Origin: Octopus vulgaris | Lineage: Eukaryota | Reading direction: 5' to 3' | DNA length: 64,000 nt | Assembly (NCBI GenBank): GCA_951406725.2 | Contig: OX597832.1 | Location: 1,674,001 to 1,738,000, forward strand | Shown: positions 44,365 to 50,115 of the stretch, one piece after another | Numbering within the stretch: position 1 is the stretch's first letter | Layout of the letters: each line of letters opens with the position of its first letter | Translations under genes and position numbers: made by a program | The notes under the pieces: model-generated | Database searches by the model: none | What the model was told of the DNA's origin: nothing | The model's input: only the letters and a program-made list of their open reading frames with translations

Positions 44365-44425
44365 ATAAAGGGTAAAAATCATTAATGATATTACCAGGGG
44401 TCAGTGCGGAAATAAAAACCTTATA
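44353..44425. mobile_element. Detached left end of the hammerhead fold-back element at 49310-50115
   Basis: AATAAAGGGTAAAAATCATTAATGATATTACCAGGGGTCAGTGCGGAAATAAAA is the reverse complement of ~50020-50075; preceded by (TA)n. Confidence 0.8.
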
Positions 44426-44827
44426 CTCTTACTTTTTTACTCGTTTCAGTCATTTGACTGTGGCCATTCAGTCATTTGACTGGAGCACCGCCTTTAGTCG
44501 AGCAAATCGCCCCCAGGACTTATTCTTTATAAGCCCAGTACGTATTCTATCGGTTCTTTTGCCGAACAACGAAGTTACGGGGACGTAAACACACCAGCAT
44601 CGGTTGTCAAGTGATGTTGGGGGACAAACACAAACACACAAACACACACACAGACACCTACACACGCACACACACACACATATATACGACGGGCTTCTTT
44701 CAGTTTCCGTCTACCAAATCCCCTCACAAGGCTTTAATCGGCCCGAGGCTATAGTAGAAGACACTTGCCTAAAGTGCCACGCAGTGGGACTGAACCCGGA
44801 ACCATGTGGTTGATAAGCAAGCTACTT
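44426..44827 (-). mobile_element. tRNA-derived SINE, body and 3' tail (interrupted)
   Basis: Matches 1865-2030, 4029-4228 and 62155-62315; B box GGTTCAGTCCC on minus strand; breaks after AGCAAGCTACTT. Confidence 0.9.
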
Positions 44828-46863
44828 TATATCATAAAATTTGTCATCATAGACAGTACAAAGAGTGTATAGCTTTGCGGGCTGGACAAGCACATTAATG
44901 AATGAAAATGAAATAGAATGAATAAATGAGAGACGAAACCCAACACCCGCCGATTGGATTTTTCTCGAAAACATATTTTCTTTTTTTAAAAGATCAATAG
45001 GTTTCAAACCTCTTACAAGAAGGAGGCACTAAAACCTCTTACTTAACATGTTTTTTTTAAACACACAATTGAGGTTATAAACCACTACAAATAATACAAT
45101 AAGATGAGGTTTCAAACCCTATAACGAGGGTCTTTCACCTCCTACTCTTCGATATATTCATCATTATCTTCAATGCCGCTTGAGTTCATGTACTCCGCCA
45201 TTTCCCATGCCTCACTCATGTAGGACATGTAAGTCGCGTAAGGGCCACCCGGCTATATGCGACACTCCTCCCCAAATCCTTTAAGCCTTTCTCACAAGGG
45301 AAACCTTATGACCTCCACAGCTATCTTCGGAGGCCATTCGGGATCCCGTGTGAAGGGCATATCTACTGTCTCTTTATGTTCTTCTACTATTTTTTCCACC
45401 TCTCTGCCCTTATAGAAAAAGATAATTAATTGATCATCTTTAAGGGTGGGGGTTGTTTCTTCCACCGTAGGTGGCACAACTTCGGGACATGCGGACGGCA
45501 CATCATCTCCCCGCTGAGATGACCCGTTCTTCTTCCTTCTTTTTTTTCTTTTCTTCCTGACTTCGGGAGAGTGGAGCTCTTCCGCTTTGTCCGGAGACTC
45601 TCACCGGCCTCCCGAAGCCTTAGGTTCTTTCGGCGGGCAACTATTGTTGCCCGCCTTCTTCCTTTTTAATCCCTTTTGAGTTGAGGAGACTGAAGCCTCC
45701 TCGACCACATCCACCTCTCCCTTTGACCGGGTAGGGGATGTGGCATCTAGTGACTGTTCCAGGTCCTTACCATGGTGCTGGGGGCAGTTCCTTTTAATGT
45801 GGCCTGGCTGCAGGCACGAGTGACATTTGGGGGGACGTCCCTCATGTATCACCGGATACCTTCAGCCAGCCATTTTCAAGAAATCTGGAAAAACCAGATC
45901 TGTTGCGGCCGATGGGGTCCACAGGGTCAAAATCGCGTTTTACTCTTCCCAATCGACCTCCGGCAATACCCTTACATTTAAGAGCCTGGGCCCGCCATCC
46001 CCCAGCCCCCGTCGGATGGTATCTTCAATCCAATCCGCTTCGGTGCCTGGGGGTAACCCACATACCCAGGCTCGTATTAATTTTCTTCCATAATATGACG
46101 GAAGGGACAAAATTTCCTTGCCTTCTAAAGGCTGACTCGCAAACTAGCGAGCCTTTTCCCCGTTGTCAAACAGCAACCATACGGTTGCATGTTTGACACC
46201 ACGGGATATATATTTTAAAGAGGACAAATATTCTTTAAGTTCATTTTTTATGACTTGTTTTGGGAAGACGGTGATGGAATTAAGAACTTTAGAATAAGTT
46301 CTAAGTACCATCGTCTTCTCCTTCATATCTTTTAACTACTGCTTAGGCGGGTTAATTTCCCACTCTAAGACAGAGTTTTTCTTTTTAAGTTCCTTCTCGG
46401 CCATGTCAAAAAACAGTTCAAAAGTAGTTCAAAAGACAGTCTGCCAAAAAATTAAACCGAATAATAATAAAACAAAATAAAAGAGGAGGGGAGGAAACTG
46501 AAATTAAATTAATGAAAAGAATGAGCCAAAATTTAGAAAGAAAGAAAAATAGAAGAAGGGAAAAGTAAAAGAAATGCCTCACAAATAGCACAGACAGGGA
46601 ATCCTTTGTATAATACTCCAAAAAGGTAATCCAAAAAGTAATCCAAATGGCTTATTCTTATTTTTCTGGCGAGATACGCCCACTAGAATTTACAAGAAGA
46701 ATTTTCAAGCAAAAATTCTCAATTCACCGTTACGGTGATCGCTATAGCGATCCATAATTGACAATTTTTCTTTGTTCTTTTTTTCTATTCACGGAGCCGA
46801 AACTCACATCTTCTCACTGTAACAGTCCAGACCAATTAGTGTTGCATTCTGGTTAACCGGAAG
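44828..46863 (-). mobile_element. ORF1-only Tx1/L1-like retroelement, copy A (~2.0 kb)
   Basis: Decayed ORF from ATG 46404 with VLRTYSK..ISRGVKHATVWLLF and GRPPKCHSCLQPGHIKRNC zinc knuckle; ~300-bp 3' UTR; no RT; bounded by TAAG(C/G)AAGCTACTT repeats. Confidence 0.8.
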
Positions 46864-46877
46864 TAAGGAAGCTACTT

Positions 46878-49153
46878 TATTTCATAACATTTGCCATAAA
46901 GGCAGTACATAGAGTAAGTTAGCTTTGCGGGCTGGACGAGGACATTAATGAAGTGAATGATAATGAAAGAAGGATGATGGGGATGGGAGAAGACAAAAAG
47001 CGCCCGCCGACTTCTGCTTCTCTAAAACATTGTTCTTTTTAAAAACAAACACAAAACGAGGTATTAAACCTCTTACAATTTTTTCAATTTTTGGACTTAG
47101 CAGTCCATTACTAATAAACAACATAGTTCAATAATTACATACATAAATACAATACACAAAGCCCCTCCTCCCAGACCTGGCTTACACTTCCCTTAGGAAT
47201 GCGCCAGCTCTAGGTCGGGGCCCCTCAAGTCGTATCACAATTTGACTCGTCCTCGAAATAACTTGTGCCCGCGCCCTCCACCATCCACCACGCCTCCCTC
47301 AGAACGTAATCGAGTTCCGAGTTAGCGTCGCCCGGGACCAAGCTATAATCCTCATTGAGCTCCTTCAGCCCAAGCGTCACGTCGAACGCCACGGCTTCCA
47401 CAGCTACCTGCGGAGGCCATTCGGGGTCCTGTGTGAAGGCTAAAGGTGCTCCCTTGTGGTGCTTTTCCATCACCTTTTCAATTTCTCCGCCTCTATAGAA
47501 GAGGATCAATACGTTCAATTCTTTCGTTGGCGGCACAGTTCCCGCCAACGGTATTTCTTCTCCTGTCGGTGGCACAACCCCAACCGACGTAGTTCCGGGA
47601 CATTCCGGTGCTATGTCACCGACAGCCGGTAATGTCCCGTTTCTCTTCCTCTTTTTCTTTTTTTCTTTTCAACTGAGGGAGGGTGCATCTCCTCCGTGGC
47701 CGGAAGATTCGCCTTTCTCTCCTCATCCCTAGTATCCTTTGGTGAGCACCCATTGTTGCTCACCTTCCTCTTTCGGCCTCTGTTTGAGGAGTCCTCTGCT
47801 TCCTTGGCCGTTATCATTCCCTCTTCTTCAGGGGTTTCACTTAACTGTTCCGGGATCCTATTTTGTTCCCGGAGACAGTTCTTCTTTATGTGGCCGGACT
47901 CCAAGCACCGATGACACTTAGGGGGGCGACCCTCAAGCATCACCGGGTACCTGCACCCGGCCATTTTCAAAAAATCTGGAAGAACCAGATTGACTGATTG
48001 GGTCCAAAGGGTCAAAATTGCTTTTGACCCAACCCAAGCAGCCGCAGGAAGAACTTTTACATTAAGGAGCTTAGTTTCGCTGCTACCCAGACCCCGGCGG
48101 ATAGTCTCCTCTATCCATTCGGGTTCTATCCCGGGTGGCAGCCCGCAAATCCAAGCTTTCGTCAGTCTCTTTTTTGGTACGTGGGCAGGAATAAAATTTC
48201 CTTACCCTCCAGGGGTTTGCTAGCAAATTTGCAAGCCTCTTCAGGGGTGTCAAATAGCAACCACACCGTTGCATATTTGACACCCCTGGAAATGAATTTA
48301 ATTGTTGGCAAATACTCTGCCAACTCTTTTTCAATTGCCGTCTTTTCGAATAGGGCGATGGTGTCGAGTGCCTTGGAGTAGGTTCTCAACACCACCGTCC
48401 TATCTTCACGGTCTTTTAACCACTTTTAGGCGGTATGATCTCCCATTCCAAAATTTTGTTATTTTTCCTTGCCATGTTTTTTTTGCTTTTTTTAAAAAAT
48501 ATATTCAAATTAAACTTAAAGAGCGAGAAGAAAAAAGTTCAAAAGTCCAAATAAAATTTGATAGATTTTTGAAAAAACAAAAAGGAGAAAGCACAACAGA
48601 AGGGAAGAAATCAACGGAAAGTCGCAATAAACAAAAAAAAACAAAAGGGGGAGTTAAATGAAGTTCAAAAGAAAGTTAATAACCAGAAAAAACACAGCAA
48701 AAATCTTCTGGCCTTACGGTACTCCCGGCCTGAGTTGAACCTGGAACGCCGCAACTGTAACACAACCTCCACAAAAATGGGTCCGAAAGGTAATCCAACA
48801 GTGGCTTATTTTTATAATTTTCTTGGGAAGTACTCTGACAAGGGAATAAATTCAACAAACCCAAACACAGCACAGTAACTGTATTGGGTTCCGAGGATAC
48901 GCCCCTCCACTGTTTTTTTTCAATAAACACAAAAACGGCAGCCGCCGAGAGCAGGCGAAATTGTCTCAGAGTTGGACACAACTTACTGAAATAATAATTG
49001 GCACGTAATAAATTATGCCCAACTCACAATAAACAAAATCACTCACCTCGACAACTTTCCATTTTTGTCTTTTTTTCTATAAGTGGACGGAGCTGGTTAC
49101 TCACGTCCACTCTGGCTCAACAGGAAGCAACTGACTAACTGCGCATGTGTGTT
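46878..49153 (-). mobile_element. ORF1-only Tx1/L1-like retroelement, copy B (~2.3 kb)
   Basis: Decayed ORF 48475-47225 with VLRTYSK..ISRGVKYATVWLLF and GRPPKCHRCLESGHIKKNC; 3' end conserved with copy A; bounded by AG(G/C)AAGCTACTT. Confidence 0.8.
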
Positions 49154-49188
49154 AGCAAGCTACTTACCACACAGCCACTCCTGCGCCT
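49154..49188 (-). mobile_element. SINE 5' head (A-box part) separated from its body by 4.3 kb
   Basis: Minus strand AGGCGCAGGAGTGGCTGTGTGGTAAGTAGCTTGCT; continues into 44827 by comparison with the uninterrupted copy at 1980-2030. Confidence 0.9.
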
Positions 49189-49309: not shown

Positions 49310-50115
49310 AAATAGGTAAATTTTACAAATATTTCAATAATTATATAGATAATTATAAGGGATTGGCTTTAAGCCTCTCCACGCGCAGAAAAAATAGACG
49401 CCAAAAGACTCTATTACCACCTTAAAAACTCCGAGAATAAAACATTGGGTTGTAGTCGGGCAAAAGAAAGCTAATGAATTTCGGTTAATCGTGTACAAGA
49501 TCCTGTTTCAAGCTTAAAGTAAAAAAATATTACTTACTGCTCTCATCTGCAACGATATTCCATAGTATGAATTTACGAGTATTTTCACATACTCATACGA
49601 GCGGCGTCATCGTACAGCAAATATATGTACACAATTGTAGAAATATACAGTAAAGAAAAGTTTACATTTCTCTTTACAACCACGTGTAGTATATCAAAAC
49701 ATACTCTGCAGAGAATGCAGTTTTGATCAAGGAGTAAATGCTTCAAATAGATACTCGTAAATTTATACTATGGAATATCGTTGCTGATGAGAACAGTAAG
49801 TAATATTGTTTTTACTTGAAACAGGATCTTGTACACGGTTAACGAAAAGTTTAATTCATTAGCTTTTTTTTTCCCGCATACAACCCAGTGTTTTATTCTC
49901 GGAGTTTTTAAGGTGGTAATAGAGTATTTTGGCATCTATTTTTCTAGCGCGTGGAGAGACTTATAGCCTTTCCTTTGTTATACTTATGTATATAATTATT
50001 AAAATATTTACCTTTAATGTTTTATTTCCGCGCTGACCCCCTGATAATATCATTAATGATTTTTACCCTTTATTATAATTAATATTTGAAGGATTTACTC
50101 CTTGATCAAAACTGT
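49310..50115. mobile_element. Older, diverged hammerhead fold-back element
   Basis: Imperfect inverted arms ~49327-49571 / ~49751-50010; 49718-49748 is also mirrored at ~50084-50113, indicating a permuted ~0.5-kb unit. Confidence 0.8.
49777..49839 (+). ncRNA. Type I hammerhead ribozyme (partly decayed)
   Basis: ATCGTTG-CTGATGA(49784)-...-GAAA(49818)-CAGGATCTTG-TA-CACGGT; near-palindromic stem III; mirror copy at ~49488-49556. Confidence 0.65.

Follow-up and report, generated by a model that had tools for sequence, protein, structure and literature searches.

The two inserts described here lie on the minus strand of a 64,000-nucleotide (nt) stretch of the Octopus vulgaris genome (contig OX597832.1, positions 1,674,001 to 1,738,000; the window), where they interrupt the tRNA-like head of a short interspersed nuclear element (SINE). 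We conclude that they are very probably decayed members of two families, both from an old clade of retroelements without long terminal repeats (non-LTR elements) that carry only the first of the usual open reading frames (ORF1), that insert at one base of this SINE, and that are likely copied in trans by a full-length, probably Tx1-type long interspersed nuclear element (LINE) using the same site. As the preliminary description had reported, the SINE is split and the 12-mer AAGTAGCTTGCT stands at all three junctions, with one mismatch in the middle copy (Table 1); the 64-kb window holds no further match at up to one mismatch. Excision of both inserts in silico (2038 and 2276 nt) rejoins the SINE head as GGCGCAGGAGTGGCTGTGTGGT, AAGTAGCTTGCT, and TATCAACCACATGGTTCCGGGTTCAGTCCC, followed by the SINE body. 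The target duplication is at least 12 nt and possibly up to 15 nt long, the element 5' ends themselves beginning TAC or AAC. Inserts A and B are 69% identical across 618 nt of the ORF and 73% identical across the final 217 nt. For insert B, five other full-length copies of its subfamily (B1) are 95 to 97% identical, and subfamily B2 is 89 to 94% identical. B is nearer to its siblings (95 to 97%) than A is to its own (89 to 94%), as would fit a later insertion of B, upstream of A.

Searches of the octopus genome with A and B returned 2292 and 3317 first-look candidates, respectively (40 scored each; these are not copy numbers), and 30 loci were fetched for each (60 in total, two of which are the window inserts). 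For each of the sequence patterns used below, the loci fetched were the first 30 matches, nearly all from contig C1. The target directly followed the element 3' end in 59 of the 60 loci (57 of 58 without the window pair), and the exception, L020, lacks its own 3' end; the flanks of other copies are therefore not random, consistent with the site specificity first proposed. On the 5' side, a script found the SINE left half in 50 loci, the 3' end of another element in 7, and neither in 3. Both SINE halves are present at 47 loci; the 12-mer is a variant at 23 of them, with the same variant on both sides in 7. Copies truncated at the 5' end still adjoin the SINE left half (L070, L071, L079, L082, L116, and L121). 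Since truncated copies lie between SINE halves and the same variant can flank a copy on both sides, we infer that these are independent insertions. The copies end GAAATA joined straight to the target with 0 to 2 extra A residues, a poly(A) tail is absent from most, and the AATAAA signal needs the AA of the target to be complete. Both window inserts proved to belong to multicopy families, and far more than two families use the site.

The short elements have no ORF2. An ORF1 coding motif gave 621 genome matches and a motif in the 3' untranslated region (UTR) gave 691, with 30 loci taken from each. The preliminary description had allowed that the family consensus might hold an ORF2 lost from the window copies; ORF2 was found inside the element in 0 of the 30 coding-motif loci, a single ORF2 match lying beyond the SINE junction, and the 1.5 kb upstream held none in any of the 30 loci chosen through the 3' UTR motif. 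Of the coding-motif loci, 29 end at the target within 190 to 530 nt; in the remaining one a small deletion marks the junction with the SINE right half. In the set from the 3' UTR motif, the target (up to 2 mismatches) follows at 26 loci, and the other 4 show remnants only. The ORF1-only state is real and old. Five loci taken at one stage for long elements without ORFs (L166 and L169 to L172) were rejected as truncated copies beside unrelated DNA.

The ORF of about 1.25 kb reported for each insert stands as a layout but not as an open frame in the window, since A has a single frame with seven stops and B has at least three frameshifts plus stops; natural intact frames of 414 to 415 amino acids (aa) occur in L113, L130 (B2), and L131 (C, a third family). 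The predicted structure is confident at about residues 20 to 165, where it comprises two β-α-β-β-α-β units resembling RNA recognition motifs (RRMs), and the predicted local distance difference test score (pLDDT) is under 50 beyond residue 207. Foldseek matches of this model were tandem-RRM proteins (E about 1e-4), and Pfam gave a sub-threshold CCHC knuckle alone. ORF1 is thus predicted from these models to hold two RRMs and a CCHC knuckle. Neither an L1 ORF1p Pfam family nor a solved L1 ORF1p was among its matches. The Atlas matched ORF1 to ZCCHC3 RNA-binding domains (score 0.88 to 0.90), and a profile comparison with fish ZCCHC3-type ORF1 matched the knuckle alone. The C-terminal WPPQVA domain had no Atlas match, no confident model, and no profile match to pieces of the ORF1 of the autonomous element described below; a likeness to the C-terminus of that protein, seen by eye, was not established.

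Across the ORF1 core, the rates of nonsynonymous (dN) and synonymous (dS) substitution among A, B2, and C, the comparison in which selection was assessed, were 0.19 to 0.25 and 1.5 to 2.5 (dN/dS 0.08 to 0.17), which supports purifying selection between families. The linker and C-terminus were less constrained (dN/dS 0.45 to 0.88). Against this, dS is close to saturation, so that the ratios are rough. A 35-row ORF1 tree placed families A, B2, and C together with 14 other loci and the protein P0001 in one clade (18 rows) with support of 100/100 and a long stem, and the ORF1s of autonomous elements formed another clade apart from it; the tree omits L141, L152, L199, and L202 (match under 100 aa or none), and some kept rows have out-of-frame stretches. 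A second ORF1-only group (L184, L191, and L197) has 37 to 39% identity to the ORF1 of the autonomous element and a different 3' UTR, and it sits at the AAGAAGC variant of the SINE. These features mark it as an independent origin of the ORF1-only state. The only ORF1 homolog in a word-indexed protein search was an Octopus sinensis protein (59% identity), and further relatives were octopod proteins. P0001 itself (O. sinensis LOC115225585), which belongs to the ORF1-only clade, comes from a second octopus data set, where its gene is annotated as coding for an uncharacterised protein; sequence runs from three other organisms had 35 to 41% of words in common. A frameshift common to 27 of 30 B copies was considered as a family trait and rejected: it lies in a run of A and is absent from L112, L113, and L130. 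It is likely a homopolymer error combined with a ranking bias towards the window copy.

The preliminary description had envisaged an autonomous element with endonuclease and reverse transcriptase (RT) that shares the target and 3' end of the inserts, and such an element was found. The starting point was an 89-nt fragment, stacked in L009, that pointed to the 3' end of a LINE; in 17 of 20 loci with that end, the target site follows. L099 holds a 5.7-kb copy between SINE halves, with a CCHC-bearing ORF1 and an ORF2 that contains an apurinic/apyrimidinic endonuclease (APE), RT, zf-RVT, and one stop (Pfam PF03372, E 1e-12; PF00078, E 7e-30; PF13966, E 8e-9; PF00098 in ORF1); the best solved match of its ORF2 was human L1 ORF2p. 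This element is the likely helper, and we refer to it below by that name and to the elements that lack ORF2 as passengers. Near-full-length helper copies were also found at L086, L091, L164, and L165, and the copies at L086, L091, and L099 are flanked by the target-site duplication. The first 30 filled sites comprised 6 helper copies (three subfamilies), 22 ends of ORF1-only type, and 2 that could not be assigned. Between helper and B DNA, matches were confined to the last 39 nt (82%, E 7e-5; the shared end of about 40 nt) and one 31-nt ORF1 stretch. Over 21 helper and passenger ends, a 4-bp 3' hairpin was paired in 94% of cells, with compensatory change in 2 of the 4 pairs.

The helper likely belongs to the Tx1 clade. 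Tx1-clade ORF1 proteins carry RRM-type domains and a CCHC knuckle. The helper ORF1 likewise has a CCHC knuckle and is homologous to the ORF1-only protein with its two-RRM model, its ORF2 follows the Tx1-type plan (N-terminal APE, RT, and C-terminal zinc finger), and its insertion is sequence specific with target-site duplication. In a quick 29-row tree, none of whose rows was a named Tx1 or L1 reference, its RT grouped with LINEs of Argonauta (P0123), cnidarians, lancelet, fish, and frog and was separated from plant elements and from another set of amphibian elements (94 by the Shimodaira-Hasegawa-like approximate likelihood ratio test, SH-aLRT). Some observations weigh against the helper's proposed role. 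The hairpin is weak when considered alone (consensus energy of -0.39 kcal/mol, with 2 pairs predicted). The helper ORF1 is about 25% identical to the ORF1-only proteins, which therefore do not descend directly from the helper sampled here; an autonomous element nearer to them may be present in few copies. Among the fetched loci, none held an autonomous copy that was intact throughout, L099 having its stop in ORF2. Trans-mobilisation is deduced from the common site and 3' end.

The target is very high in copy number, short, and dispersed. The empty 31-nt site has 67,601 exact matches in the genome and the filled site has 588; for the AAGAAGC SINE variant, exact matches numbered 6,855 empty (27-nt pattern) and 136 filled. 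Reversed-pattern controls for the empty and filled counts gave 0 matches. The A- and B-box-like motifs of the SINE head were recognised by eye; no tRNA was reported by ARAGORN for the window or by Rfam for one empty head. On the 60 fetched loci, ARAGORN found one tRNA gene (tRNA-Asp, L063), which is intact and adjoins the insertion rather than being split, although a split tRNA would escape ARAGORN. A SINE containing an 82-nt helper fragment, which begins at the antisense motif described below, has this tRNA-Asp gene (L063:1381-1453) a few dozen bases upstream of it. Named octopus SINE families are OK, OR1, and OR2.

Stacking like that in the window recurs elsewhere. In 6 of the 58 other loci an element is stacked at the 5' side, compared to about 0.9% occupancy (binomial P = 1e-5; 1e-3 at 2% occupancy). 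At L131/L132 (C1:223.69-223.71 Mb), seven copies of family C form a head-to-tail array with one target copy between units; the units are 98.8 to 99.9% identical, and some neighbours are 99.7 to 99.9% identical. L133 (C1:29.27 Mb) is a C-C-C-B2 array, again with one target copy between units. The order C directly upstream of B2 is found repeatedly (L054, L133, and L225/L224).

In the mechanism that we propose, an ORF1-only RNA would encode its own protein with two RRMs and a knuckle and be packaged by it. The helper ORF2 would bind the common 3' end of the passenger RNA (the 4-bp hairpin), make one nick in the bottom strand (GTGGT^AAGTAGC) and a second, 12 to 15 nt further on, in the top strand, and copy the passenger RNA at the nick by target-primed reverse transcription. 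The duplication would rebuild the target site, allowing later elements to stack head to tail. Because AATAAA is completed by the target AA and most copies are without poly(A), transcripts likely read into target sequence; such RNA would anneal to the nicked strand and may fold back on an antisense motif in the 3' UTR.

This motif, antisense to the target and carried in the element tail, is a feature absent from the preliminary description. In the helper it reads AAGCTACTT, about 80 nt from the end; in passengers it reads GCA(A)GCTAC, about 45 nt from the end. Among 30 tails at AAGTAGC sites, AGCTAC was present in 14, AGCTTC in 0, and neither in 16; among 30 tails at AAGAAGC sites, AGCTTC was present in 13, AGCTAC in 2, and neither in 15 (Fisher P = 1.8e-6, ignoring shared descent). 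The motif switches with the SINE variant both in the helper (L173 versus L138 and L157) and in passengers. At AAGTAGC sites, duplex energy favours a tail's own site in 27 of 32 cases and beats shuffled sequences (P ≤ 0.05) in 27 of 32; at AAGAAGC sites, it favours the own site in 22 of 30. Several results weigh against a pairing role, however. At AAGAAGC sites, 10 of 30 tails beat shuffles, and the motif is absent from several older tails. In A and B it is degenerate and bulged, with a longest exact match of 5 to 6 nt, not above shuffles, and a duplex energy P of 0.02 to 0.03. The covariation of motif and site is confounded with family age and shared descent, and L178, L185, and L201 bear the tail of the other variant.

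The likeliest account of the motif, at about an even chance, is an intramolecular pair in read-through RNA, favoured by the same completed AATAAA and absence of poly(A). Pairing between RNA and DNA or between element RNA and SINE RNA, and a coincidence confounded with age, are lesser possibilities of equal standing. A more ambitious proposal is that element RNA helps to choose or open its own target, an 8- to 11-nt motif pairing either with SINE RNA or with the SINE site's top strand, and that the helper and the ORF1-only clade both changed motif with the dominant SINE variant; this would amount to RNA-assisted, retargetable specificity in an APE-type LINE with coding passengers. We consider that proposal tentative and rather doubtful.

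Other explanations can be offered for the same loci. The families could have arisen by internal deletion from one or several autonomous LINEs that escaped notice, with ORF1 conserved in the parents and no protein of their own needed by the short elements. The distance of the sampled helper ORF1 (25%), the broken frames of most copies, and pure passengers such as that at L140 (about 95 nt) all fit this account, and the second ORF1-only group (L184, L191, and L197) implies that deletions arose more than once. However, A, B, and C have one junction from the ORF1 stop to the 3' UTR, together with its motifs, despite near-saturated synonymous sites; ORF2 was seen in 0 of 30 coding-motif and 0 of 30 3'-motif loci; and young B2 and C copies keep intact frames of 414 to 415 aa. 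We therefore regard derivation by deletion as improbable, and an old ORF1-only clade mobilised in trans remains the preferred reading.

If the SINE head is a look-alike decoy, the selected target would be a real tRNA or another multicopy gene, as for other Tx1-clade elements that hit multicopy RNA genes (Keno in U2, in the accessible part of PMC4494074), and the SINE head does look tRNA derived. Yet the flanks are SINE body and not tRNA, the tail motif tracks SINE variants, and the one tRNA gene in 60 loci is intact, a partial test because ARAGORN would miss a split tRNA; we judge a decoy very unlikely. Slighter still is the chance that the inserts spread passively within a carrier SINE, as composite copies, or by segmental or tandem duplication. 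The seven-copy array on contig C1, at 98.8 to 99.9% identity, fits local duplication for part of the arrays, and the recurrence of C upstream of B2 (L054 and L133) could reflect co-transposed dimers. Nevertheless, 5'-truncated copies of many lengths between both SINE halves largely refute this account, the flanking SINEs differ in variant with locus-specific changes common to both sides, and the base is shared by the autonomous element and by numerous families unrelated to one another.

Table 1. Features of the split SINE and its two inserts (window coordinates)
Feature	Position	Strand	Basis
SINE head 5' part, A-box-like GTGGCTGTGTGGT, upstream of insertion site	49166..49187	-	Sequence; same left half precedes 50/60 fetched copies
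Target-site copy 1, AAGTAGCTTGCT	49154..49165	-	Sequence match
Insert B, ORF1-only non-LTR element, subfamily B1	46878..49153	-	Genome DNA search
ORF1 of B, broken; two predicted RRMs, CCHC knuckle, basic linker, C-terminal WPPQVA domain	47225..48475	-	Sequence, intact relatives, predicted fold
CCHC knuckle of B ORF1	near 47916-47875	-	Sequence
B 3' UTR motif GCAAAGCTAACTT, antisense to target, two bulges	46916..46928	-	Sequence
B 3' hairpin TGCC-TTTAT-GGCA, common to autonomous element	46892..46904	-	Alignment of ends
Target-site copy 2 (one mismatch), separating B from A	46866..46877	-	Sequence match
Insert A, non-LTR element of family A with ORF1 only; 89-94% identity to other copies	44828..46865	-	Genome DNA search
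ORF1 of A, one frame, 7 premature stops	45142..46404	-	Translation
CCHC knuckle of A ORF1	near 45825-45784	-	Sequence
A 3' UTR motif GCAAAGCTA, degenerate antisense to target	44870..44878	-	Sequence
A 3' hairpin TGTC-TATGAT-GACA, compensatory change vs B	44842..44855	-	Alignment of ends
Target-site copy 3	44816..44827	-	Sequence match
Remaining SINE: B-box-like GGTTCAGTCCC, body, tail; end approximate	44425..44815	-	Sequence; same right half after 56/60 copies (script)

The 5' motif GTGAGT of the preliminary description is present in the window inserts at 46807 and 49104 but is no hallmark, other family copies having unrelated 5' leaders. At L023, L029, and L057 to L060, one ORF1 body follows unrelated leaders, as in promoter swapping, and several of these leaders hold splice-donor-like GTAAG or GTGAGT motifs. 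None of 24 listed sequencing runs is recorded as RNA; three runs of guessed RNA status gave contigs over C and B2 with no spliced joint, and nothing is concluded from them on expression. At L140:1400-1505, a passenger of about 95 nt at the same site consists of the first 51 nt and last 43 nt of B2. Just past the SINE head, a long inverted repeat at 49352-49981 of the window has arms of 129, 34, and 62 nt that are 87 to 94% complementary, resembling a miniature inverted-repeat transposable element (MITE). Directly before the window, L090 (C19:1664100-1674000) is another stack, composed of an internally deleted A, a deleted helper, and a further element.

The closest known systems resemble the octopus elements in part. 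The Tx1-Mar LINEs of crocodilians with their SINEU passengers, and Xenopus Tx1 in Tx1D, likewise pair an APE-type LINE in an abundant transposon with non-autonomous passengers at the same target, and their tandem insertions sandwich one duplication (Kojima 2015, PMC4494074, in the part available). Their targets, as given there, are DNA transposons or LTR elements and their passengers are non-coding, whereas the octopus elements use one SINE-head base (57 of 58 loci) and have passengers that code for a conserved ORF1. Structured common 3' ends recognised by the helper are a feature of stringent-type LINE/SINE pairs with a 3' stem-loop (PMC3747384, in part), and for SART1Bm and R1Bm the accessible part of PMC7265360 proposes RNA-target annealing, target-like RNA sequence aiding accurate priming. 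The SART1Bm motif is there described as top-strand sense and anneals to the nicked bottom strand; in contrast, the internal octopus motif is antisense to the top strand, so that its pairing partner would be the top DNA strand, SINE RNA, or RNA from read-through.

Half-L1 (HAL1) elements end in poly(A), insert without a fixed target, and have an ORF1 kept by selection. These mammalian elements are non-autonomous, encode ORF1p alone, and have more than one origin (PMC5753468, in the part available), as the two ORF1-only groups suggest for octopus; independent multicopy families with duplications are a further likeness. HAL1 derives from mammalian L1 according to that source, whereas the octopus elements appear to come from an invertebrate Tx1-like lineage, are mostly without poly(A), and are site specific, with a 3' hairpin in common with the helper. 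The available part of an O. vulgaris repeat annotation lists 80 L1-Tx1 consensus families, 13 of them recently active, some of which may be the elements described here, and does not describe target site, nesting, or ORF1-only structure (PMC13282606). The portions seen of PMC8869645, PMC4758252, and PMC3747384 hold no description of this system, and no account of SINE-targeting or ORF1-only Tx1 elements was found in the literature searched, which did not extend to subscription journals, Repbase Reports, or Dfam. The system itself is well supported and joins probably Tx1-type transposon targeting to a HAL1-like architecture, a combination that is new with respect to the literature searched; a Repbase or Dfam entry is possible.

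These data suggest a new target class for site-specific LINEs, one base in a SINE head, and a three-tier dependence in which the SINE serves as landing pad, a full-length LINE supplies the enzymes, and an ORF1-only clade of long standing forms the third tier. ORF1 genes under selection without ORF2 in cis would isolate what ORF1 does for its own RNA. With about 70,000 exact target copies, specificity, stacking, and target drift are measurable from one genome. Finally, the covarying antisense motif offers a direct mutational test of RNA-target pairing in LINE site choice, which bears on tools for site-specific gene insertion.

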